In this document: positions 22,404-60,837 of the stretch, one piece after another
How the letters are laid out: every line of letters begins with the position of its first letter
Numbering within the stretch: position 1 is the first letter of the stretch
NCBI GenBank assembly: GCA_964569655.1
Contig: CAZMTN010000002.1
Coordinates: forward strand, 134,295-198,294
Source: an uncultured Candidatus Saccharibacteria bacterium
GTDB lineage: Bacteria > Patescibacteriota > Minisyncoccia > Phycocordibacterales > Phycocordibacteraceae
Length of the DNA: 64,000 nucleotides
Direction: 5' to 3'
Made by a program: the position numbers and the translations under genes
The notes under the pieces: model-generated
Seen by the model: the letters and a program-made list of their open reading frames with translations, nothing else
Database searches by the model: none
What the model was told of the DNA's origin: nothing

Positions 22404-22541
22404 ATGTAAAAGGTCGGGGCACGTAGCGGTGTATACTGTATACGTGCTCGTACGGGAATATTCCCGCTGACGAGGTCAAATAGACCGAAACGGGCAATAG
22501 CAAAGCGCGTCCTCACGGGCGCGCTTTGCTATTATGGATAC

Positions 22542-24397: not shown

Positions 24398-25207
24398 ATG
24401 AACGAAACGATGAACAGTCTTGCCGATAACCGCGCCTTCCGTATCGCGTCGGTGGCGGCTATTTCCATCCTCGCACTCTTCCTTCTCGTGAAGACGGTGG
24501 ACGTGCTCGGCCAGGTCGGCGACGACGGCATGCCTCCTTCCAACGTCATCACGGTGAGCGGAACCGGCACCGCAAGCATGGTCCCGGACATCGCGAAGAT
24601 CACCTTCTCGGTCACCCAGGAAGCAAGCACCGTCGCGGCCGCTCAGGACGGCGCCACCAAGCAGGCGAACGCCGCGCTCGCTGCGGTAGAAGAGGAAGGC
24701 ATCGACGAGAAGGACATCAAGACGGTCTCCTACAACATCTCGCCGCTCTACTCGAACCCGCGCCCGTGCCCGATCGACGCGTACTGTGTGAATGGCGGTA
24801 CCCCGCAGATCTATGCGTACCAGGTGTCCCAGACCGTGCAGGTGACCGTCCGCGACCTCGAGCAGGTCTCGCCGCTCCTCACGGCCCTCGGCCAGCTGAA
24901 CGTCCAGAACCTCTACGGCCCTGAGTTCGCGCTCGATGACTCGTCTGCGGCCCAGAACGCGGCGCGCGCGGAAGCTATCGAAGAGGCAAAGGCCCAGGCC
25001 GAAATCCTCGCTGATCAGCTCGGCGTCGACCTCGTCCGCATCGTGAGCTTCTCCGACTCCTCCGCGTACCCGATGTACTACGGGAAGGCGTACGGCGGGG
25101 TAGCCATGGATATGGCGCAGGAATCTCGCGCGGCCTCGAACCCGTCGGTCCCGACCGGCGAGAACGAATACACCGCGCAGGTCTCCATCACCTACGAGAT
25201 CCGCTAA
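24398..25207 (+). CDS. SIMPL/DUF541 domain periplasmic protein
   Basis: 269 aa; N-terminal TM anchor; conserved VTVRDLEQVSPLL block typical of SIMPL. Confidence 0.65.
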   Translation: MNETMNSLADNRAFRIASVAAISILALFLLVKTVDVLGQVGDDGMPPSNVITVSGTGTASMVPDIAKITFSVTQEASTVAAAQDGATKQANAALAAVEEEGIDEKDIKTVSYNISPLYSNPRPCPIDAYCVNGGTPQIYAYQVSQTVQVTVRDLEQVSPLLTALGQLNVQNLYGPEFALDDSSAAQNAARAEAIEEAKAQAEILADQLGVDLVRIVSFSDSSAYPMYYGKAYGGVAMDMAQESRAASNPSVPTGENEYTAQVSITYEIR

Positions 25208-26600: not shown

Positions 26601-27020
26601 ATGGCTAAAGTAGTTAAAAAGATCAAGTTGCAGGTCCCTGCAGGCAAGGCCACCCCGGCTCCGCCTATCGGTACCGTGCTCGGCCCGGCCGGCGTTAACA
26701 TCGGCCAGTTCGTGACGCAGTTCAACGAGGCAACCCGCGACAAGATGGGGGACATCATCCCGGTGGAGCTTTCCGTGTACGAGGACCGCTCGTTCACCTT
26801 CATCATGAAGACTCCGCCGGCCCCAAGGCTCATCTTGAAGGCCCTCGGCCTCGAGAAGGGTTCCGGCAAGACCGGCACCCAGAAGGCGGGAACGCTCTCG
26901 AAGGATCAGGTCAGGAAGATCGCCGAGCAGAAGATGCCGGACCTCAATGCAGGTTCGATCGAAGCCGCAGACCGCCTCATCACGGGCACCGCGCGCTCGA
27001 TGGGCATCGACGTGAAGTAA
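26601..27020 (+). CDS. rplK: 50S ribosomal protein L11
   Basis: 139 aa; [34 protein letters not shown] signature. Confidence 0.9.
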
Positions 27021-27041: not shown

Positions 27042-27070
27042 ATCCCCGCGGGAGCGGGGTTTTTCTTTTA
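27042..27070. terminator. bidirectional rho-independent terminator after rplK (also behind the minus-strand folA)
   Basis: ccccgcggg-agc-ggggttttt; no rplA follows. Confidence 0.65.
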
Positions 27071-27556
27071 TCTCTCCAAATCAGTCCAGGAGTATCGCAC
27101 GCCGTCCGCAGAGACGTGCTTCTCCTCGGAGATCACTTTGGTGAATACGGATTCATACTCAGGAAAGAAGGAATCCCCAGGCTTCTCCTCGCTGATGAGG
27201 GTGAGATAGAGGCGATCGGTGAAGGGGAGGGCGGCCGTGTATATCTCGCCGCCGCCGATGACGAAAATATCCTCGTCCGCTTCCTTCGCTTTCGCGAGGG
27301 CATCCTCGATCGTCGAGACGACGACGGCTCCGGGCGCCTCGTAATTGCTCGTGCGCGTGACGACGATGTTCATGCGATTCGGGAGCGGGCGGAACCGCTC
27401 GGGGAGCGATTCCCAGGTCTTGCGTCCCATGATGACCGGGTGCCCGTCCGTGAGCTCTTTGAAGCGCTTCAGGTCTTCCGGGATCCTCCAGAGGAGGTCC
27501 CCGTCCTTGCCGAGGGCGCGGTTCACGGCTCCGATAGCGGCGATGATGCTGATCAT
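27068..27556 (-). CDS. folA: dihydrofolate reductase
   Basis: start at MISIIAAIGAVNRALG; DHFR motifs (LPW-like LLWRIP, GRKTWESLP, VIGGGEIY); 162 aa. Confidence 0.85.
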   Translation of the reverse strand: MISIIAAIGAVNRALGKDGDLLWRIPEDLKRFKELTDGHPVIMGRKTWESLPERFRPLPNRMNIVVTRTSNYEAPGAVVVSTIEDALAKAKEADEDIFVIGGGEIYTAALPFTDRLYLTLISEEKPGDSFFPEYESVFTKVISEEKHVSADGVRYSWTDLER

Positions 27557-27569
27557 GAGCTTGAGTGTA

Positions 27570-28019
27570 TCAAATGTCGCGGGCGTCGGTCTGGATGAAC
27601 GCGTGCGTGTGCTTGTAGTAGTCGACGACGCACACGAAATCAACCGGCTCGTCCCAGTCCTTCCGCTCGAGGAGGTCGTCCTTCAGTTCATGCTCGAAGC
27701 AGAAGCCGATGCGGATCCACTCCTTGGGCACGGCGGAGAGGAAACGGTCGTACCAGCCGGCGCCGTGGCCGTGGCGGGTACCGGTGCGGTCAAACGCCCG
27801 GCCGGGGAGGAACACGCAAGCGCGCTCGCCGTTCGCGACGGCAATCGCTTTCTGCGCTTCTTCGAACGGGTCCAGGCTCCTTCGAGGGACGATACGGTAC
27901 ACCTTCTTCCCGGGCGGTATGGTGACTAATTCTTGGAAAGGCACTTCGATCTTAAGCGGCGTGTACGTGATCCACACCGTGCACGCGTCTATCTCCGTTA
28001 CTTTGCCTTCTTGTGCCAC
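27570..28019 (-). CDS. 5-formyltetrahydrofolate cyclo-ligase family protein (appears N-terminally short)
   Basis: 149 aa; C-terminal PGRAFDRTGTRHGHGAGWYDRFL motif of 5-FCL; overlaps the dcd 3' end by 22 nt. Confidence 0.6.
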   Translation of the reverse strand: MAQEGKVTEIDACTVWITYTPLKIEVPFQELVTIPPGKKVYRIVPRRSLDPFEEAQKAIAVANGERACVFLPGRAFDRTGTRHGHGAGWYDRFLSAVPKEWIRIGFCFEHELKDDLLERKDWDEPVDFVCVVDYYKHTHAFIQTDARDI

Positions 28020-28702
28020 GGCTGTTTCTTCTTCGTGTCCTTATCGCTCCAGAGGCGGGGGAGCATGCTCTCCGGCTTCCAGTCCTTCTCGAGCTGCTTC
28101 ACGTTCGTGGAGGAGGCGTACTTGCCGCTCGCGGCGTAGTCCTTGCCTTCGATGGGGCCGGTCTCGAAGAAGATGATCTGCGCGATGCGGCGCCCGACGA
28201 CCAGCGGGATGATGTAGTTCTTCGAGTTGTTGGTGATCTCCATGGTCCAGCGGTTGATGTACCCCACGTCGCCCCAGCCGGCGCATTTGCAGACCTCGAT
28301 GAACGAGCGCCCGAGGGAAGAGCGCGCCTTCATCATGGTGGTGATGTGGTCCTTGCCGCCGATGAACTCCTGCGTGTGCGCGAGGATAGTCTCTCCGGGG
28401 CGCAGCACGATGACCTTGTCGTCCGGGCGGATGCCGCCGGTCCAGTCGAAGTTGTATTTCTTGAACGCCTCCTTGGCCGTCACCGCGCGCTCTACCTTAT
28501 CCGCGCCCCACACGTGCTCGATGTGGTCCTTGTCCCAGATGTTGTAGAGAGAATGGTTGTATTTCGGCGGCTGTTCGCGGAAGAACCATTCGCCGAGCGT
28601 TACGTCATAGGAAGACGTCGCGAGGTTGCCGCGGTCGAACGGCGAGATGACGATATCGCCTTTCTGCATCTCTTCCTGGATCCTCTTGTCTGAAAGCGCC
28701 AT
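27998..28702 (-). CDS. dcd: dCTP deaminase (dUTPase superfamily) with C-terminal Lys-rich extension
   Basis: 234 aa; N-terminal MALSDKRIQEEM...ISPF and dUTPase-fold motifs. Confidence 0.7.
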   Translation of the reverse strand: MALSDKRIQEEMQKGDIVISPFDRGNLATSSYDVTLGEWFFREQPPKYNHSLYNIWDKDHIEHVWGADKVERAVTAKEAFKKYNFDWTGGIRPDDKVIVLRPGETILAHTQEFIGGKDHITTMMKARSSLGRSFIEVCKCAGWGDVGYINRWTMEITNNSKNYIIPLVVGRRIAQIIFFETGPIEGKDYAASGKYASSTNVKQLEKDWKPESMLPRLWSDKDTKKKQPWHKKAK

Positions 28703-28713
28703 AGGTCTGGGGA

Positions 28714-29544
28714 TTATACGGCCATCGGGGCTTTTATGGGAGGGTGGGACTCGTATCCCTCGAGGCGGATGTCGTCCATGGTGAACTTAGATATATCCTT
28801 CACCTCCGGGTTGAGCCAGAGTTTGGGGAGCGGGAGCGGCTCGCGGGAGAGCTGCTCCGTTACGGCATCGAAATGATTCTTATAGATGTGGGTATCCCCG
28901 AGCGTATGGATGAACTCGCCGGCCTTGAGGCCCGTCACCTGCGCCACCATATGGAGAAGGAGAGAATAGGAGGCGATGTTGAACGGGACGCCAAGGAAGA
29001 GGTCCGCGCTCCTTTGATACATCTGGAGCGAGAGCTTCCCGTCCGCGACGAAGAACTGGAAGAAGATGTGGCAGGGCGGCAAGGCCATCTGATCGAGCTC
29101 CCCGGGATTCCAGGCCATCACGATGAGGCGGCGGCTCGAGGGATCCTTCTTAATCATCTCCACTACGTCGGAGATCTGGTCGAGGGTGGTGCCGTCCGGG
29201 CGCATCCAGCTGCGCCACTGCACGCCGTAGATGCGGCCGAGGTCTCCCGGGTACTTCGCCTTCGGGTTCCAGTAGTCGGCGGTGCCGTTCGCGGTCCAGA
29301 TGGTCTTCTCGGACTCATTGAGCTCCTTCAGGCGGTTGTCGTCGCTCGAGCCTTCGAGGAACCAGAGGAGTTCGCTTTTGACCGCCTTGAAGGCGAGCTT
29401 CTTGGTGGTTACGGCCGGGAAGCCGTCCTCCATATTGAAGCGCATCTGGGCGCCGAAGAGCGCCCGGGTGCCTGTTCCTGTGCGATCAGAACGATCTGTG
29501 CCCTCATCCATCACTTTGCGCATGAGGTCGAGGTAGGTCTTCAT
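28714..29544 (-). CDS. thyA: thymidylate synthase (ThyA)
   Basis: start at [16 protein letters not shown]...DRTGTGT (the ORF extends to 30213 in frame); catalytic Cys region PPCH; 276 aa. Confidence 0.9.
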
Positions 29545-29562
29545 TACGGGTATACTACCATC
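29545..29562. promoter_or_regulatory. 18-bp divergent intergenic core between the thyA and tmk start codons, containing a palindromic GTATAC with overlapping -10-like hexamers (TATACT on plus, TAGTAT on minus)
   Basis: tacgggtatactaccatc; each -10-like hexamer ends 7-8 nt before the respective ATG, implying leaderless mRNAs. Confidence 0.45.
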
Positions 29563-30255
29563 ATGCAAAAAGGCGTCTTCGTAGTCCTCGACGGGCTTGA
29601 CGGGTCCGGCAAAGCGACGCAGACCAGGCTCCTCAAGGAGCGGTTCGAGAAGGACGGCACCCCGTACGAGACCATCGATTTCCCCTCGTATGACCGCACC
29701 GTCTTCGGGAAGCTGCTCGGCGAGGCGCTCGCCGGGAAGCGCGGTGACTTCCTCCATGTGGATCCGCGCATCGGCTCGACGCTCTATGCCCTCGACCGCA
29801 TGGAGATGTCTTCCACCATCTGCGGCTGGCTGAGTGAAGGGAAGGCGGTGATCGCGGACCGCTTTACGAGCTCTAACCAGATCCATCAGGGCGGGAAGAT
29901 CGAGGACATCAAGGACCGCGACGAGTTCCTCAACTGGCTCGACACCATGGAGCACGAAGTATTGAAGGTGCCGCGTCCGGATGCGGTCATCTATCTGAGG
30001 GTCCCGATCGAGACGAGCGCGCAGCTCCTGCGCGAGAAGCGCGCGGCGAAGAACCGCATCCTGAAAGACGGCGAGCAGGACACGGTGGAGCGCGACACGG
30101 AGTACGTGGCCCGGAGCTACGAGTCCGCCCAGTATCTCGCGGAGACCCGTCCGAACTGGCATGTCGTCGATTGCATGCAGGGCGCTGAGATCCGTACGCC
30201 CGCCTCTATACATGAGGATGTCTACAATATCGTGCGCGGTATACTCCTGTCATGA
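29563..30255 (+). CDS. tmk: thymidylate kinase
   Basis: start at [20 protein letters not shown] (P-loop); the ORF extends upstream to 28744 only as read-through frame; 230 aa. Confidence 0.88.
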
Positions 30256-31514
30256 GTTACGGCCATATCGAGAAGCAGGACGCCGAGGTCTTCGGCGCCA
30301 TCACGGGCGAAGAGCAGCGCGAGCGCGAAGGCCTCGAGCTCATCCCGTCCGAGAACTACGTATCGCTCGCGGTCCGCGAGGCGATGTCTTCGGTGCTCAC
30401 GAACAAGTACGCGGAAGGGTACCCTGGGAAGCGCTACTACGGCGGGCAGGAGTTCACGGACGAGGTGGAGACCCTCGCGATCGAGCGCGCGAAGCAGCTC
30501 TTCGGCGCGAAGTACGCGAACGTGCAGCCGCATGCGGGCGCGCCGGCGAACGTTGCGATGTACTTCGCGCTCCTTGAGCCCGGGGACACGGTGCTCGGGA
30601 TGGACCTTTCCCACGGCGGCCACCTCACGCACGGCCACCCGGTGACCTACCTCACCAAGATCTTCAACTTCGTCCGCTACAAGATGAAGGACCCGGAGAC
30701 CGGGGAGATCGATTACGACGAGATGCGCGAAGTGGCGCTCCGCGAGAAGCCCAAGATTCTGCTTGCCGGCTATTCCGCGTATCCGCGCGAGCTCGACTAC
30801 GCGAAGTTCGTGGCTATCGCGCGCGAAGTTGGCGCGTACGCGGTGATGGACATCGCGCACATCGCAGGCCTCATCGCGGGGAAGGCAGTGAAGAACCCGT
30901 TCGACTACGGCTTCGACGTCATGACCACCACCACGCACAAGACGTTGCGCGGCCCCCGCGGCGGCATGATCCTCACGCGCGAGAGCGAGGAGATCGCGAA
31001 GAAGGTAGATAAGTCCGTGTTCCCGGGATTCCAGGGCGGTCCGCTCATGCACATGATCGCGGCGAAGGCGGTCTGCTTCAAGGAGGCGCTTGACCCGTCG
31101 TTCCAAGACTATGCGAAGCAAGTCATTAAGAACGCTCAGGCGATGGCCGAGGTTTTCAAGCGGGGAGGCGTGCGCCTCATCACGGGCGGCACGGACAATC
31201 ATTTGATACTCGCCGACGTGTTCGGCTCGCTCGGCATCCCGGGAGGGGAAGCGGAGAAGCTCCTCGATCGCGCCGGCATCACGCTCAACAAGAACGCGAT
31301 CGCGGACGATACCCGGAAGCCCATGGACCCGTCCGGCATCCGCTTCGGTACGCCGGCCATCACCACTAGAGGCTTCAAGGAAGCGGAGTGCATCCGCGTC
31401 GCGGAGCTCATGCTCGAGATTCTGAAGCAGAAGGACGACGCCACCATCGAGAAGGCGAAAGCGGAGATCATGCAGCTCGCGAAAGCGCATCCGGTGCCGG
31501 AAGCGTTCATCTAG
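30252..31514 (+). CDS. glyA: serine hydroxymethyltransferase
   Basis: 420 aa; PLP-binding motif TTTTHKTLRGPRGG; ATGA overlap with the tmk stop. Confidence 0.92.
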   Translation: MSYGHIEKQDAEVFGAITGEEQREREGLELIPSENYVSLAVREAMSSVLTNKYAEGYPGKRYYGGQEFTDEVETLAIERAKQLFGAKYANVQPHAGAPANVAMYFALLEPGDTVLGMDLSHGGHLTHGHPVTYLTKIFNFVRYKMKDPETGEIDYDEMREVALREKPKILLAGYSAYPRELDYAKFVAIAREVGAYAVMDIAHIAGLIAGKAVKNPFDYGFDVMTTTTHKTLRGPRGGMILTRESEEIAKKVDKSVFPGFQGGPLMHMIAAKAVCFKEALDPSFQDYAKQVIKNAQAMAEVFKRGGVRLITGGTDNHLILADVFGSLGIPGGEAEKLLDRAGITLNKNAIADDTRKPMDPSGIRFGTPAITTRGFKEAECIRVAELMLEILKQKDDATIEKAKAEIMQLAKAHPVPEAFI

Positions 31515-32125: not shown

Positions 32126-32143
32126 GCAGCAAATCTCCATCCA

Positions 32144-32173
32144 GAAACCCGCGCTTCCGGCGCGGGTTTCTGC
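32144..32173 (+). terminator. rho-independent terminator immediately followed by a TACACT -10-like element before argS
   Basis: gaaacccgcgc-ttcc-ggcgcgggtttc followed by tgctacact, 8 nt before the argS ATG. Confidence 0.55.
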
Positions 32174-32185
32174 TACACTCGCCGT

Positions 32186-34422: not shown

Positions 34423-37400
34423 ATGGAGAAATCAGAGGCGGCGCTCCGGGAAGAGAAGATCCTCCAGTTCTGGGAGGATCGAGGCATCTTTAAGAAGTCC
34501 CTGGAGAAGCCTTCGCCGAAAGGGGAGTTCGTCTTCTACGAAGGTCCGCCTACCGCGAACGGGCGCCCCGGCATCCATCACCTCGAGTCTCGAGCGTTCA
34601 AGGACGCCATCCCGCGCTATAAGACCATGCGCGGCTACCGCGTCCCGCGCCGCGCCGGCTGGGACACGCACGGCCTCCCGGTAGAGCTCGAGGTGGAGAA
34701 GGAGCTCGGGTTCTCGGGGAAGAAGGAGATCGAGACCTACGGCATCGCGGCGTTCAACCGCAAATGCCGCGAGAGCGTGCTCCGCTACATCGGCGACTGG
34801 GAAGTCTTCACGAAGCGCATGGGCTACTGGGTGGACGCGTCCAAGGCGTACTTCACCTTCGATGCCTCCTATATGGAAGCGGTGTGGGGCGTGTTCAAGA
34901 CGGCAGCGGACTCCGGCCGCCTCTACAAGGATTACAAGGTGGTGCCGTGGTGCCCTAGATGCGAGACGGCGCTCTCCTCGCACGAACTCGCGCAAGGATA
35001 CGAGGACGTCTCGGACCTCTCGGTGACAGCGAAGTTCGAGCTCGTCGACGAGCCAGGTACCTACGTCGTCGCCTGGACCACGACGCCGTGGACGCTTCCG
35101 GGGAACGTCGGCCTCGCGGTGGGTCCGAACATCAAGTACGGCATTTACATAAAGGAAGGCGTGAAGGTCATCGTCGCGGACGCGCGCGCAAGCGTGCTCG
35201 GCGAAGGCTGGGAGCGGAGTTCGGACGCGCCGGACCTCGTCGGCAAGGCATACAAGCCGCTCTACGATTTCCTCTCGCCGCTCGCGGAAGGGAAGGAGAA
35301 GGAGAATCTGCAGAACGCGTGGAAGATCTACGCGGCTGATTTCGTAACTACCGAGGACGGTACCGGCGTGGTGCACACGGCAGTGATGTACGGCCAGGAC
35401 GACTTCGCGCTCGGCCAGAAGGTAGGTTTGCCGAAGGTGCATCTTGTCGCGCCGAACGGCCGCTACGTATCCGGCACCGGCTTCCTCGAGAACCGCTTCG
35501 TCCGGGACGAGGAGGTAGCGGTGGATATCATCAAGGATCTCGCGGGCCGCGGGCTCCTCTTCAGCAAGGCGAAGTACCAGCACACGTATCCGTTCTGCTG
35601 GCGCTGCAAGACCGCGCTCATCTATTACGCGCGCGATTCGTGGTACTTCCGCATGACGGATCTCGCGGGGGAGCTTTCGAAGGAGAACAAAGGCATCCAC
35701 TGGGAGCCGAGCCATTTCCGCGACGGCCGCATGGGCGAGTGGCTCGCGAACGTGAAGGACTGGGCGATTTCGCGTGAGCGCTACTGGGCGACGCCGCTTC
35801 CGGTATGGCGGAGCGAGGATGGGGATCAAGTTGTCATCGGATCGGTGGAGGAGTTGAAGGCGCGTACGAAGAAGAGCGGAAATACGTACTTCTTCATGCG
35901 CCACGGCCAGTCCGAGACGAATGTCCGAAAAATCGCTAGCGTCGACGCGGAATCGAAGTACCCGCTCACGGCGAAGGGGCGGGGGCAGGCAGTGGCCGCT
36001 GCGAAGAAGCTCAGCGGGGTGACGCGCATCTATACCTCGCCGGTGCTCCGCGCGCGTGAGACCGCAGAGATCGTCGCTGAGGAGGTCGGATTCCCGAAGG
36101 AAGAGATCATCGTCGACGATCGGCTCCGCGAGTATGGATTCGGCGATCTCGAAGGGAAGTCGATTACCGAGTTCCAGAGGATGCAGGAAGGGCTCGGCTA
36201 CGCGGATCCGGTCCCGGGCGGGGAGAGCTATCAGGATGTGAAGAATCGCGTCGGCGATTTCCTCTATGAGATCGAGACCGCGCTCGCGGGCGAGACCGTG
36301 CTCATCGTGACCCACGGCGCAGTGAACGAGGTGCGCGAGGCGCTGGCTTCGGGCGCCGATAAGAAGGTCTCGAAGGAGCTTGTCGATTCCGGGTACGTGG
36401 AAGCGGGCACCGTCTCCCCGCTTGCATTCGTCCCGCTCCCGCACAACGAGCGCTACGAGCTCGACCTCCATCGCCCGTACATAGATGATGTGGTACTCCT
36501 TTCAGATTCCGGGAAAGCCATGCGCCGCACGCCAGAGGTTATGGACGTCTGGTTCGACTCAGGCGCCATGCCGTTCGCGCAGAACGCGAAGGATCGGAAG
36601 CCTGGATCCTTGAAGGACTATTTCGATACCGTGCCGTACCCGGGTCAGTACATCAGCGAAGCGATAGACCAGACGCGCGGTTGGTTCTACACCCTGCTCG
36701 CAGTCGGCGTGCTCATGGGGCGCGGCGCATCCTATAAGAACGTGATCTGCCTCGGGCACCTCCTCGATGCCGAAGGGAAGAAGATGTCGAAGTCGAAGGG
36801 GAACGTGGTGGTGCCGGGCCCCGAGATGGACAAGTGGGGCGTCGATACCATCCGCTTCTGGATGTACAGCGTGAATCAGCCCGGAGACAGCAAGAATTAC
36901 GACGAGAAGACCATGAAGGAAGCGTCGCGTACGCTCTCGTGGCTCACCAACAGCGCGAAATTCTACGAGCTCTTCGCTGCGGATAAGAAAGGGGGAGCCA
37001 AGAAGCAGTTCATCGACCGCTGGATGGAGCAGCGCGTGGCTGACACGGTGCGCGCCGTCACCGAGGACCTCGAGGGCTACAAGCTCTATGAGGCGGCTAC
37101 CGAGGTCGCCTCGCTCTGCGAGGACCTCTCGCAGTGGTACGTGCGCCGCATCCGCGATCGCGCGAAGGAGGGGGACGCTGCCGCAATCGGCACGCTGCGC
37201 CATGCGCTCAAGTCGATCGCGCTGCTTGTCGCGCCGTTCGCGCCGTTCATCGCGGAGGACGTGTATCAGGTGGTAAAGCAGGAGACGGATCCGGAAAGCG
37301 TGCATCTCGCGCAGTGGCCGGTCGCGAAGGAATCATTCCTTTCGCGGTGGTTCAATAAGGACACGTCGGTCGCTGAGATGAAGAGGGTGCGCTCGCTCGC

Positions 37401-37755
37401 ATCCGAGGCGCTCATGCTCCGCCAGAAGGCGGGCAGCAAGGTGCGTCAGCCGCTCGCGAGCCTATCCATCCCAGGCACGCTCTCTGCGGGAGCGCAGGCG
37501 CTGCTCGCTGAAGAAGTGAACGTGAAGCAGATCATCTGCAACGCCCCCGAGCTTGCTCTCGACACCAACCTCACCACCGAGCTCATCCGCGAAGGGGACG
37601 AGCGCGAGATGCTCCGTGCGGTCGCGGAAGCACGAAAGACGCTCGGCCTCTCGCCGAAGGATAGGATGCGCGTCGACGTGAACGCGGAGGGCGCATACGC
37701 GGTCGAGCTCTCCACCGGCACGCAGAAGTTCGATCTCGTCCCTGATGCGGCATAA
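34423..37755 (+). CDS. ileS: isoleucyl-tRNA synthetase with an inserted histidine-phosphatase (PGAM-like) domain
   Basis: 1110 aa; HIGH region (PTANGRPGIHH), CP1 editing domain, WAISRERYWATPLPVW, DVWFDSG, KMSKS (KMSKSKGN); about 230 aa inserted between the WxISRxR and DVWFDSG motifs carrying RHGQSETN and THGAV motifs. Confidence 0.9.
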   Translation: MEKSEAALREEKILQFWEDRGIFKKSLEKPSPKGEFVFYEGPPTANGRPGIHHLESRAFKDAIPRYKTMRGYRVPRRAGWDTHGLPVELEVEKELGFSGKKEIETYGIAAFNRKCRESVLRYIGDWEVFTKRMGYWVDASKAYFTFDASYMEAVWGVFKTAADSGRLYKDYKVVPWCPRCETALSSHELAQGYEDVSDLSVTAKFELVDEPGTYVVAWTTTPWTLPGNVGLAVGPNIKYGIYIKEGVKVIVADARASVLGEGWERSSDAPDLVGKAYKPLYDFLSPLAEGKEKENLQNAWKIYAADFVTTEDGTGVVHTAVMYGQDDFALGQKVGLPKVHLVAPNGRYVSGTGFLENRFVRDEEVAVDIIKDLAGRGLLFSKAKYQHTYPFCWRCKTALIYYARDSWYFRMTDLAGELSKENKGIHWEPSHFRDGRMGEWLANVKDWAISRERYWATPLPVWRSEDGDQVVIGSVEELKARTKKSGNTYFFMRHGQSETNVRKIASVDAESKYPLTAKGRGQAVAAAKKLSGVTRIYTSPVLRARETAEIVAEEVGFPKEEIIVDDRLREYGFGDLEGKSITEFQRMQEGLGYADPVPGGESYQDVKNRVGDFLYEIETALAGETVLIVTHGAVNEVREALASGADKKVSKELVDSGYVEAGTVSPLAFVPLPHNERYELDLHRPYIDDVVLLSDSGKAMRRTPEVMDVWFDSGAMPFAQNAKDRKPGSLKDYFDTVPYPGQYISEAIDQTRGWFYTLLAVGVLMGRGASYKNVICLGHLLDAEGKKMSKSKGNVVVPGPEMDKWGVDTIRFWMYSVNQPGDSKNYDEKTMKEASRTLSWLTNSAKFYELFAADKKGGAKKQFIDRWMEQRVADTVRAVTEDLEGYKLYEAATEVASLCEDLSQWYVRRIRDRAKEGDAAAIGTLRHALKSIALLVAPFAPFIAEDVYQVVKQETDPESVHLAQWPVAKESFLSRWFNKDTSVAEMKRVRSLASEALMLRQKAGSKVRQPLASLSIPGTLSAGAQALLAEEVNVKQIICNAPELALDTNLTTELIREGDEREMLRAVAEARKTLGLSPKDRMRVDVNAEGAYAVELSTGTQKFDLVPDAA

Positions 37756-38314: not shown

Positions 38315-38328
38315 GTTATACTGGGCGC

Positions 38329-40209
38329 ATGCCTCACGAAGAAGATAGCGCTCTCGAGCGCATGCGCTCCCGCCTCTACGCGCCGAATGCGGACAAGGAG
38401 GCGCTCGGGCAGGATGAGCTCAGCGAGCGCGCGAGCGAGGTGCCCCGCGGATGGAATCCGCCCCCGGAGATGCCCAAGAAACCTACCTACAAGACCCTGC
38501 CGCTCTCATTGAAGTTCCTTCTCGGGGCGCTCGGCTTCTGCATCGTCGCCGGCCTCGCCACCGCCTACTTCCTCTTCATGGGCGGCAGGACCGTATCCAC
38601 GGACAACATTGATATCGATATCGAGGCGCCGGTCACGGCTGCCGGCGGAGACACCATCTCCATCCAGATCGCGATCGAGAACCGCAACCCGGTCGCCATC
38701 AAGGATACGGACTTCTCGGTGGAGTTCCCGGAAGGGACCCGCTCCGCCGACGACGTCACGAAGCCGTTCACCCGCTATAACGACACGCTCGGGGAAGTGG
38801 AATCCGGCCGCGCGGTGGTGCGCACCATCCGCGCTACCGTCTTCGGCGCGGAGAACAGTACTGTCCGCATCCCGATCCGGCTCGAGTACCGTACGGTCAC
38901 CTCGAACGCGGTGTTCGTGAGAGAGGAGGTGTACGAGCTCACTATCACGTCCTCGCCGATGTCGGTCACGGCGACGTCGGTGTCCGAGATCTCGTCCGGC
39001 CAGCCGCTCACCGTCTCGCTCTCGGTCCGTTCGAACGCTACTGAGCCGCTGACCGATGTCGCGCTCAAGCCTGAGTTCCCGTTCGGCTTCACGCTCGGCG
39101 AGGCGTCGCTTCCGCTTGAGAGCGGCCTCTTCGATCTCGGCACGCTGCGTCCAGGCCAGGAGCGGAAGATCACGGTCTCGGGGACGCTCGCCGGCGAAAA
39201 TAATGACGAGCGCGTCTTCCGGTGGAGCGCCGGATCGGTCGCGACGAGCACCAACGGAGCGCTTGGCGTCGTGTTCGCGACCGCCGAGTCGTCGGTCACC
39301 ATCACGCGCCCGTTCTTCGACGTATCCCTCTCTTTGAATAACGAGACGACCGGCACGCCGGTCGTCGCTGCAGGGCAGACGGTGCAGGGCGTTGTGCGCT
39401 GGCGCAACACGCTCGATGATCCCATCACGGACGGCTCCGTCATCATCGCGCTCTCGGGGAACGCTTACGACCCGAAGAGCGTGGTGGCGGACAACGGCTT
39501 CTACCGCTCCTCCGATAACACCATCCGCTTCGACCGCGACACGGACTCGGGGCTGCGTTCCATCGCGCCTGGAGACACTGGGGTAGGGACCTTCTCGTTC
39601 CGGATCAAGTCCGGCAGCGAGCTCGACTCGCTCCGGAACCCGTCCGCGACCTTCACTGTCTCCTCCTCCGGCCGCCGCGTCGGCCAATCCGGAGTCCCGG
39701 AGTCGCTTACCGCGGTCATCACTCGCTCGGTGAAGATCGCGACCGGGATCTCGCTCGAGTCGCGCGCCGTGCGCTCGGTCGGGCCGTTCACGAACACGGG
39801 CCCTATCCCGCCCGAGCCCGACCGGGAGACGACGTACACCATCATGCTCACCGCGCAGAACGACGTGAACTCCATCGGCGGCGCGACGGTCACCATGACG
39901 CTTCCGTCGTACGTCCGCTTCACGGGGCTCACCAATCCGAACGGCTCGGTCACCTACACCGAATCCACTCGCACGGTGAAGTGGGTGCCGGGGGACATCG
40001 GCCCGAACACGACGAAGCAGGCATCTTTCCAGGTCGGATTCACGCCGAGCTCGTCGCAGTCCAATTCGAGCCCGATGATCGTGTCCGCGCAGAGCCTCAC
40101 CGGCACCGACCGCTTCACGCAGACCAGCATCACGAGCACTGCGCCGATGCTCACCATCGAGACCGATACCGACCCCGCCTACGATAAGGAGGATGGCTCG
40201 GTAGAGTAG
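38329..40209 (+). CDS. large membrane-anchored surface protein with repeated beta-sandwich (CARDB/DUF11-like) segments
   Basis: 626 aa from MPHEED; one TM helix near residue 70; Thr/Ser/Val-rich repeated about 100-aa units; a TATACT -10-like element 8 nt before the ATG. Confidence 0.6.
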   Translation: MPHEEDSALERMRSRLYAPNADKEALGQDELSERASEVPRGWNPPPEMPKKPTYKTLPLSLKFLLGALGFCIVAGLATAYFLFMGGRTVSTDNIDIDIEAPVTAAGGDTISIQIAIENRNPVAIKDTDFSVEFPEGTRSADDVTKPFTRYNDTLGEVESGRAVVRTIRATVFGAENSTVRIPIRLEYRTVTSNAVFVREEVYELTITSSPMSVTATSVSEISSGQPLTVSLSVRSNATEPLTDVALKPEFPFGFTLGEASLPLESGLFDLGTLRPGQERKITVSGTLAGENNDERVFRWSAGSVATSTNGALGVVFATAESSVTITRPFFDVSLSLNNETTGTPVVAAGQTVQGVVRWRNTLDDPITDGSVIIALSGNAYDPKSVVADNGFYRSSDNTIRFDRDTDSGLRSIAPGDTGVGTFSFRIKSGSELDSLRNPSATFTVSSSGRRVGQSGVPESLTAVITRSVKIATGISLESRAVRSVGPFTNTGPIPPEPDRETTYTIMLTAQNDVNSIGGATVTMTLPSYVRFTGLTNPNGSVTYTESTRTVKWVPGDIGPNTTKQASFQVGFTPSSSQSNSSPMIVSAQSLTGTDRFTQTSITSTAPMLTIETDTDPAYDKEDGSVE

Positions 40210-40228
40210 TTCGTGGTAATACAACCCT

Positions 40229-47481: not shown

Positions 47482-48057
47482 TTACGCCTTACTTACGCGC
47501 TCCACGTACTCGCCGGTCTCCGTGTTGATCTTGATCACGTCGCCCTCGTTGATGAAGAGCGGGGTGTTCACGGTAGCCCCGGACTCAAGGCCGACCTGCT
47601 TGCTGCCGCCGGAGACGGTGTCTCCCTTCACTGCCGGAGCGGCCTCCGTCACTTTCAAGTCAACCTTGATCGGGATCTTGATGGTTACCGGCTTGTCCTT
47701 GTAGACGAGCACTTCAACCTCGGCGTTGGTGATGAGCCACTGCACCTGATCGTGCACGGCCTCCTCCTTGAAGGAGAAGCGGTTCTTCGGGTTGCCGACC
47801 TCGGTGAACCAGGACTCGCCGCGGTTGGTGTAGAGGTAGACGGCGTCCATCTTCTCAATGTCCGCCTCGGAAATGGTCTCGGACTGGTGGAAGGAGATCT
47901 CGATCACGCGGCCGGAGATGATGTTCCGGAGCTTGGTCTGGTTGACGGGCTTGCGCATCTGCATGCGGAAGATGTGGGACGAGAGGACCTCGTACGGGGC
48001 GTTTTCGTACTCGATCACCGTCTTCGGGAGGATCTCGTTGTATGAGAGGACTGCCAT
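47482..48057 (-). CDS. efp: translation elongation factor P
   Basis: 191 aa; KOW-like N-domain and two OB domains; EF-P conserved blocks. Confidence 0.88.
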   Translation of the reverse strand: MAVLSYNEILPKTVIEYENAPYEVLSSHIFRMQMRKPVNQTKLRNIISGRVIEISFHQSETISEADIEKMDAVYLYTNRGESWFTEVGNPKNRFSFKEEAVHDQVQWLITNAEVEVLVYKDKPVTIKIPIKVDLKVTEAAPAVKGDTVSGGSKQVGLESGATVNTPLFINEGDVIKINTETGEYVERVSKA

Positions 48058-60824: not shown

Positions 60825-60837
60825 TATAATCGATGCA

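Follow-up and report, generated by a model that had tools for sequence, protein, structure and literature searches.

How can two divergently transcribed genes be expressed when their start codons are only 18 bp apart? The question is raised by a window of 64,000 nucleotides, the whole stretch of DNA analysed here, in which thyA (thymidylate synthase), on the minus strand, and tmk (dTMP kinase), on the plus strand, face each other across a spacer that makes up the entire intergenic region. A first-pass annotation of this DNA had proposed that both genes are transcribed as leaderless mRNAs from a shared, palindromic -10 element, and the predictions of this proposal that could be tested at the sequence level have all held. 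Here we argue, at a rough probability of 0.8, that the spacer is a bidirectional leaderless core promoter, embedded in a lineage style of gene expression that would dispense with -35 elements and make scant use of Shine-Dalgarno (SD) pairing. The GC content of the window is ~60%, and the relatives of its Tmk come exclusively from uncultured genomes of Patescibacteria, or the Candidate Phyla Radiation (CPR), labelled Paceibacterota, Parcubacteria, Kaiserbacteria or Minisyncoccia (the top match is 71% identical, and an identical copy of the protein is not on record); judging by these matches, the host is a Paceibacteria/Parcubacteria (CPR) bacterium.

The spacer, TACGGGTATACTACCATC, lies between the ATG of tmk (29563-29565) and that of thyA (the reverse complement of 29542-29544). 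A scripted check of every hexamer, start-codon and stop-codon position upheld the first-pass description of the site: the two ATGs are 18 bp apart, and a palindromic GTATAC is present in which TATACT on the plus strand overlaps TAGTAT on the minus strand. TATACT is separated from the tmk ATG by 6 nt and TAGTAT from the thyA ATG by 7 nt (Table 1). The two hexamers share 5 bp in such a way that T29556, the -7 position of tmk, pairs with the -11A of thyA, and A29552, the -11 position of tmk, pairs with the -7T of thyA. Under the assumption of the usual 7 nt from -7 to +1, the predicted transcription start site (TSS) of tmk is 29563(+), the first base of its start codon, and that of thyA is 29545(-), an A one base before the ATG that is itself preceded by a pyrimidine, which would leave a 1-nt leader, or else 29544. 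The predicted TSSs are separated by 18 bp (19 with a thyA start on the first base of the ATG) and, assuming TSSs at 29563 and 29545, position -18 is a T in either direction (the plus strand reads T at 29545, and its A at 29563 corresponds to a T on the minus strand).

Both start codons can be regarded as fixed because the protein profiles align from the first residue and the N-termini coincide in relatives: residues 1-276 of ThyA align to positions 1-264 of the 264-position NF002497 profile, and residue 1 of Tmk aligns to position 1 of TIGR00041. These alignments also address the possibility of a misassigned start codon, which the first-pass annotation had named as damaging to its proposal. 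The spacer has no in-frame ATG, GTG or TTG, and a match of at least 4 nt to AAGGAGGTGA at a suitable distance is absent from both strands; SD calls were obtained for neither gene. A scan for canonical -35/-10 promoters found none at the spacer and none pointing at thyA or tmk, a result that we read as the mark of a -35-less promoter class and not as the absence of a promoter. One element of the initial proposal can be refined: it had placed any -35 contacts inside the opposing gene, but the promoter class to which these elements seem to belong has no -35 consensus, so that such contacts are probably not needed.

Is this arrangement a peculiarity of one contig? We compared it with a set of 80 loci, against which tblastn was run with the ThyA, Tmk, GlyA and Dcd sequences of the window as queries, after which start codons were refined. 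The block in which a dcd-thyA strand faces a tmk-glyA strand is kept in ~30 of the 80 loci. Divergent thyA and tmk occur in 30 relatives, with a spacer of at most 30 bp in 24 of these; the most common length of the short spacers is 20 bp (11 cases), followed by 21 bp (six), the rest measuring 19-23 bp apart from one of 30 bp. GTATAC is present in 22 of the 24 short spacers and a perfect 8-bp palindrome, AGTATACT, in 18, giving the typical layout CAT-N6-AGTATACT-N6-ATG; TATACT stands 6-7 nt from the tmk ATG in 22 of 23 spacers and from the thyA ATG in 18 of 19. Both hexamers of the relatives are thus TATACT, offset by 2 bp, with predicted TSSs 21 bp apart. The eight core positions are 77-100% conserved and the flanks are variable, and the layout is kept across genomes in which Tmk identity is just 50-70%. 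The fifth base pair from the palindrome centre is complementary in just 2 of 22 spacers, which suggests that the symmetry stems from the overlap of two hexamers and not from a longer operator. Furthermore, in five relatives in which the spacer has expanded to 74-122 bp, CAT-N6-AGTATAC still adjoins thyA; since thyA keeps its half after tmk has moved away, each half would appear to act as the promoter of its own gene. Similar layouts occur with other partners: tmk faces a different divergent gene in two loci (L022, L046), and in two more (L027, L033) an unrelated gene pair is separated by 19-22 bp around TATAAT or TATACT. In the closest relative (L001, 5953-5990), the tmk open reading frame (ORF) carries a 4-residue N-terminal extension (MTTM-MQKG); 18 bp separate its first ATG from that of thyA, and TATAAT comes just 4 nt before this first ATG, so the plus-strand start there may be a short-leader variant.

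If the spacer exemplifies a general style, the same spacing should recur elsewhere, and a tally of distances from -10 boxes to start codons, which the first-pass annotation had put forward as a check, was run on the window and on the related loci. For 68 genes whose starts were predicted from codon log-odds alone, with upstream information left aside, TANNNT hexamers are sharply concentrated at two distances from the start codon, 6 nt in 14 genes and 7 nt in 4; each of the remaining spacings between 0 and 30 nt is represented by 0-4 genes. The 18 of 68 starts with TANNNT at 6-7 nt compare with ~1.6% of all ATGs (binomial P ~3e-17; 0.2-0.9% per position over all window ATGs), and none of 310 internal in-frame ATGs has the motif at this spacing. 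The string TATACT-N6-ATG is found four times against 0.04 expected in shuffled sequence, a 100-fold excess, and of the window's 13 TATACT sites, 6 are placed 6-7 nt ahead of a long ORF. In 42 related loci of at least 50% GC the spacing-6 peak recurs (34 of 204 genes), and it persists when homologues of thyA, tmk, glyA and dcd are left out (13 of 124 genes). A bias of gene calling, by which an in-frame TAA or TAG within the hexamer would set the start, was considered and rejected: there is no peak at spacings of 3, 9 and 12, and TAT or TAC opens 10 of the 14 hexamers found at a spacing of 6. Taken over the window and the clade, the 6-7 nt peak supports the initial suggestion that leaderless initiation may be widespread in this organism.

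Other properties of these genes are compatible with leaderless initiation. With the spacing relaxed to 5-8 nt, 20 of the 68 genes have a close TANNNT box, namely 14 of 42 candidate first genes (genes that have a divergent neighbour or are preceded by a gap of at least 40 bp) and 6 of 26 closely packed ones. Translation of leaderless mRNAs shows a strong preference for AUG, and all 20 genes with a close -10 start with ATG, as opposed to 36 of the other 48, where the remaining 12 have GTG or TTG. A pyrimidine followed by a purine is the usual start-site context, and position -1 is a pyrimidine in 17 of the 20. In an alignment of 26 close -10 sites, 18 carry G at -14 and 12 carry T at -15, and the matrix derived from it contains no signal around -35, which indicates that the promoter class would be an extended -10 (TGnTAnnnT) lacking a -35. 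SD matches of at least 4 nt precede 12% of the starts compared with 20% of internal ATGs, so there is no enrichment in the window, and matches of at least 5 nt occur at just 2 of 68 starts. The presence of a close -10 is not reflected in the folding energy of the first 40 nt (P 0.49), and genes with and without one are alike less structured there than in gene interiors.

Within the module around thyA and tmk, close -10 boxes are also found in front of glyA, folA and dcd, none of which the first-pass annotation had listed. The boxes of folA and dcd involve a reuse of stop codons: the TAA of thyA lies inside the TATAAT of dcd, an overlap that recurs in many relatives, and the TGA of a gene resembling 5-formyltetrahydrofolate cyclo-ligase (MTHFS) supplies the TG of the folA element. 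The predicted dcd leader would be 3-4 nt here. Among relatives, 23 of 34 loci have a -10 box at 9-10 nt from the dcd start codon, in most cases with ...ACT-ATG after it, a position that predicts a conserved leader of 2-3 nt there. The three boxes that the first-pass annotation did report, at argS, glyS and the gene starting at 38329, are all present at 6 nt, the one at glyS being weaker as it lacks a T at -7.

These observations can be combined in the following scenario. The 18-bp spacer would be a complete bidirectional core promoter consisting of two opposite-strand -10 elements that overlap by 5 bp, TATACT serving tmk and TGgTAGTAT serving thyA. An RNA polymerase with a sigma-70-type factor would bind in either orientation, the two directions presumably competing for one polymerase site, and would start tmk mRNA at 29563 and thyA mRNA at 29545 or 29544. 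Both mRNAs would be leaderless, with 70S ribosomes initiating on a 5'-terminal AUG that is translated without an SD interaction. Likewise, the AUGs of glyA (N6), folA (N7) and dcd (N10, with its short leader) would come to lie close to an mRNA 5' end through internal -10 boxes that occupy the final codons, or the stop codon, of the gene upstream. The locus would then be a local case of a genome-wide style that combines extended -10 elements lacking a -35, no SD enrichment, and a close -10 at ~30% of the genes. The geometry of the sequence, its conservation and the statistical enrichment are matters of observation; the polymerase and ribosome steps are what we infer from them.

Could the palindrome be something other than a promoter? 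The most obvious candidate is an operator: AGTATACT, or its GTATAC core, could bind a dimeric regulator of thymidylate genes, with the promoters located elsewhere or overlapped by it. The perfection of the 8-bp palindrome core in 18 relatives would be expected of such a site, as would the longer symmetry seen in some of them (for example, CCTAGTATACTAGG in L028) and the invariance of the normally tolerant -8 position. But the symmetry otherwise ends at the 8-mer, as the fifth pair attests, and 8 bp is short for a dimeric regulator; TATACT occurs 6-7 nt before unrelated genes as well, where it is not palindromic; the element keeps a constant distance from both ATGs, a requirement for a promoter but not for an operator; and thyA retains its half where tmk has moved off. 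We therefore consider an operator in place of a promoter unlikely, and an operator overlaid on the promoter unnecessary and poorly supported. Another reading gives both mRNAs ordinary leaders, with each promoter lying within the coding sequence of the other gene and translation independent of SD sequences as in Bacteroidota, the hexamers being incidental or giving rise to minor antisense transcripts. Because SD motifs are not enriched, a leadered mode of this kind must exist for most genes anyway; ATG starts that are not leaderless have a common context of C(-4), C(-2) and T(-1), and at least one TATACT (24366) lies 26 nt upstream of a gene (start at 24398). This view, however, has to contend with the empty promoter scan at thyA and tmk, and it leaves unexplained both the exact 6-7 nt conservation at the two ATGs at 50-70% Tmk identity and a sharp spacing peak that is confined to gene starts; we rate it as very improbable. 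As for plain coincidence or misassigned start codons, TANNNT is a loose motif and spurious ORFs can be long in high-GC genomes, thyA and tmk each having an open antisense frame, but profile alignments that begin at residue 1 of ThyA and Tmk, the 100-fold excess of TATACT-N6-ATG and a layout conserved in at least 24 independent genomes effectively refute this possibility.

The bidirectional leaderless promoter thus appears to accommodate the available facts best, yet several observations weigh against it or limit its reach. The TAGTAT of thyA, at a spacing of 7 nt, is less ideal than the TATACT-N6 of the relatives. The C at -8 is invariant (22 of 22 and 21 of 22) beyond what a generic -10 element would need, which leaves room for an additional constraint. 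The glyA box is not conserved: TANNNT is found at 6-7 nt in 12 of 40 relatives, and a few have GGAGG instead. Furthermore, ~70% of the window genes, with ribosomal protein genes among them, lack both a close -10 and an SD sequence, so another mode of initiation must exist. The ATGs of genes that lack a close -10 prefer C(-4), C(-2) and T(-1), and G is depleted at -1 and -4. Examples of genes with neither signal are those at 26601 (L11), 62304, 62796 and 47482-48057(-).

How does the proposed arrangement compare with known systems? Divergent TSSs in bidirectional promoters are most commonly 18 bp apart, with 10 and 23 bp also common and small deviations allowed, and in the class with a shared -10, where TSS pairs lie 7-25 bp apart, -7T and -11A are reciprocally paired and T occupies -18 on both strands (PMC10268837, PMC12825309). 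The thyA-tmk spacer has the same overlap, the same -7T/-11A pairing, T at -18 and a predicted TSS separation of 18 bp as these promoters, described by Warman, Grainger and colleagues, whereas the predicted 21 bp of the relatives falls between the reported optima of 18 and 23. The known promoters drive mRNAs both ways, as the spacer would; here, both products would be leaderless, the intergenic region measures just 18-20 bp with room for nothing more, and the element is conserved across a deep clade instead of being sporadic. Among extended -10 (TGn) promoters lacking a -35, the thyA element (TGgTAGTAT) fits, but the tmk element (GGgTATACT) and the AGTATACT elements of relatives have no TG, so that TG is not essential at this locus. 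The divergent lysG-lysE pair of M. tuberculosis was considered as a close analogue and set aside, given its 108-bp spacer.

The second comparison is with leaderless bacteria. Bacterial genomes with frequent leaderless transcription, GeneMarkS-2 group C, are recognized by a Pribnow box that precedes the start codon of first genes by 6-8 nt (PMC6028130); most of them belong to the Actinobacteria or Deinococcus-Thermus, and roughly 25-50% of their transcription units are leaderless (PMC6028130; D. deserti PMC4007540). The lineage considered here shares with group C (Mycobacterium, Streptomyces, Corynebacterium, Deinococcus) the -10 at 6-8 nt and the preference for ATG. The two differ in that group C uses SD sequences for leadered and internal genes, whereas the remaining genes here show no SD enrichment, on which ground a group C-type mixture of SD and leaderless starts was rejected as an account of the leadered genes; in addition, genes internal to apparent operons here often have their own -10, and the host belongs to the CPR/Paceibacteria, which the group C work does not mention. 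The literature that we searched contained nothing linking leaderless mRNAs or SD usage with CPR, Patescibacteria, Parcubacteria or Minisyncoccota, and within that literature leaderless initiation appears to be unreported for the CPR. Both mechanisms, the shared bidirectional -10 and leaderless expression, are already known; what is new is the CPR/Paceibacteria host and the combination, in which 18-20 bp would carry all start signals for two divergent leaderless genes and are conserved across genomes.

What, then, do the genes of the module do? Searches with Pfam and NCBIfam profiles bore out the six identities and strands given in the first-pass annotation (Table 1), as well as the ATGA (30252-30255) shared by the tmk stop and the glyA start. 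The annotation had also proposed a complete route from dCTP to dTDP coupled to a folate cycle. This holds insofar as ThyA, dihydrofolate reductase (DHFR), serine hydroxymethyltransferase (SHMT), Dcd and Tmk are present; the step from dUTP to dUMP hangs on an unproven bifunctional Dcd, as the module has no separate dut (dUTPase) gene. The only full-length homologues of Dcd in the PDB are dUMP-forming bifunctional enzymes (1ogh, E 2e-12, and relatives), at low similarity. The folA product begins with MISIIAA; the TTG farther upstream that opens the longest ORF is not the true start. The MTHFS-like gene starts at a GTG that could be either 27977 or 28019, and neither a -10 box near the start nor any recognisable initiation signal was found for it; its product of 135-149 aa matches only the C-terminal half of the family profile and scores 61.9 bits against TIGR02727, under the cut-off of 84.9, so the gene may be truncated or a divergent small variant. 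The cycle of ThyA, DHFR and SHMT is common to this module, thyA-folA operons and the dTMP modules of phages and bacteria, Dcd and Tmk being additional here; compared with known thymidylate-cycle clusters, the present one is distinguished by its two divergent arms, individually promoted cistrons, the lack of a separate dUTPase and the truncated MTHFS-like gene. Between folA (ending at 27068) and the convergent L11 gene (ending at 27020) lies a GC-rich hairpin, CCCCGC-GGGA-GCGGGG, with a T-run (27044-27059), probably a bidirectional terminator shared by the two genes.

Table 1. Genes of the module and -10 elements discussed in the text, with window coordinates
Feature	Coordinates	Strand	Details
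folA, dihydrofolate reductase, 162 aa	27068-27556	minus	PF00186, residues 1-158 to profile 1-155
folA extended -10, TGaTACACT	27564-27572	minus	7 nt before ATG 27556
MTHFS-like gene (5-formyltetrahydrofolate cyclo-ligase-like), short	27570-27977/28019	minus	PF01812, profile positions 103-185 only
dcd, dCTP deaminase family, 234 aa	27998-28702	minus	PF22769, 4e-32
dcd -10, TATAAT	28713-28718	minus	10 nt before dcd ATG
thyA, thymidylate synthase, 276 aa	28714-29544	minus	PF00303, 2.7e-112; NF002497
thyA-tmk spacer, 18 bp, whole intergenic region	29545-29562	both	contains GTATAC
tmk -10, TATACT	29551-29556	plus	6 nt, then ATG; G at -14, no TG (GGgTATACT)
thyA extended -10, TGgTAGTAT	29552-29560	minus	TGG 29560-29558, TAGTAT 29557-29552; 7 nt, then ATG
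tmk, dTMP kinase, 230 aa	29563-30255	plus	PF02223; TIGR00041
glyA -10, TATACT, within last tmk codons	30240-30245	plus	6 nt before ATG 30252
glyA, serine hydroxymethyltransferase	30252-31514	plus	PF00464, 4e-151
argS extended -10, TGcTACACT	32171-32179	plus	6 nt before ATG 32186
TATACT of the 626-aa gene	38317-38322	plus	6 nt before ATG 38329
glyS -10, TGgTAATAC	40214-40222	plus	6 nt before ATG 40229; weaker, C at -7

Farther downstream, NCBIfam profiles identify ArgRS and GlyRS, and between these genes lies that of the 626-aa protein (38329-40209, plus strand), which belongs to no Pfam or NCBIfam family, has an unusual GC content of 0.58/0.53/0.84 by codon position and is preceded by a textbook TATACT-N6-ATG. 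The argS -10 abuts an upstream terminator hairpin (32138-32173), and the stretch 32138-32185 can be viewed as a fusion of terminator and promoter, a GC-rich hairpin followed by a TTTGC that doubles as the TGn of TGcTAnnnT-N6-ATG, by which one short stretch would end one transcript and start the next, leaderless one. Similar fusions are seen upstream of the genes at 60837, 41604, 22542 and 23248. GTATAC occurs 14 times in the window against 3.6 expected; at 22431-22443 (plus strand), just 3' of a tRNA-Leu gene, two copies lie 1 bp apart (TATACTGTATAC) and are followed by a GTG, out of frame with the next predicted gene (22542). The IleRS of 1110 aa (34423-37755, plus strand) contains an inserted histidine-phosphatase or phosphoglycerate-mutase-like domain (residues ~481-644; NF038349 1.5e-27, TIGR03162 5e-23) that splits the synthetase into parts 3-493 and ~698-1035. 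Rfam and tRNA scans of the window yielded nine tRNAs, and the Rfam scan found no rRNA there.

In practical terms, start-codon calling in CPR metagenomes needs initiation signals, and gene finders based on SD sequences will mis-annotate lineages that use a -10 in place of a ribosome-binding site. The spacer also provides a minimal bidirectional promoter on which the symmetry model of divergent transcription can be tested directly, and the locus offers a testable entry into translation start in bacteria with reduced ribosomes, a topic on which we found no literature. It illustrates an extreme intergenic compaction, in which 18-20 bp serve two genes, and stop codons and terminator U-tracts are reused as promoter bases. 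A broader generalization, which we put forward tentatively and with more doubt than confidence, is that the clade as a whole translates essentially without SD pairing and leans on leaderless mRNAs, its apparent operons being strings of individually promoted cistrons whose -10 elements are lodged in the end of the preceding gene. On that interpretation, AGTATACT flanked by N6 at both ends would amount to a minimal, fully symmetric unit of 20 bp that supplies two essential genes with their start signals for transcription and translation, and the expression of thyA and tmk would be coupled because only one polymerase at a time can occupy the palindrome.

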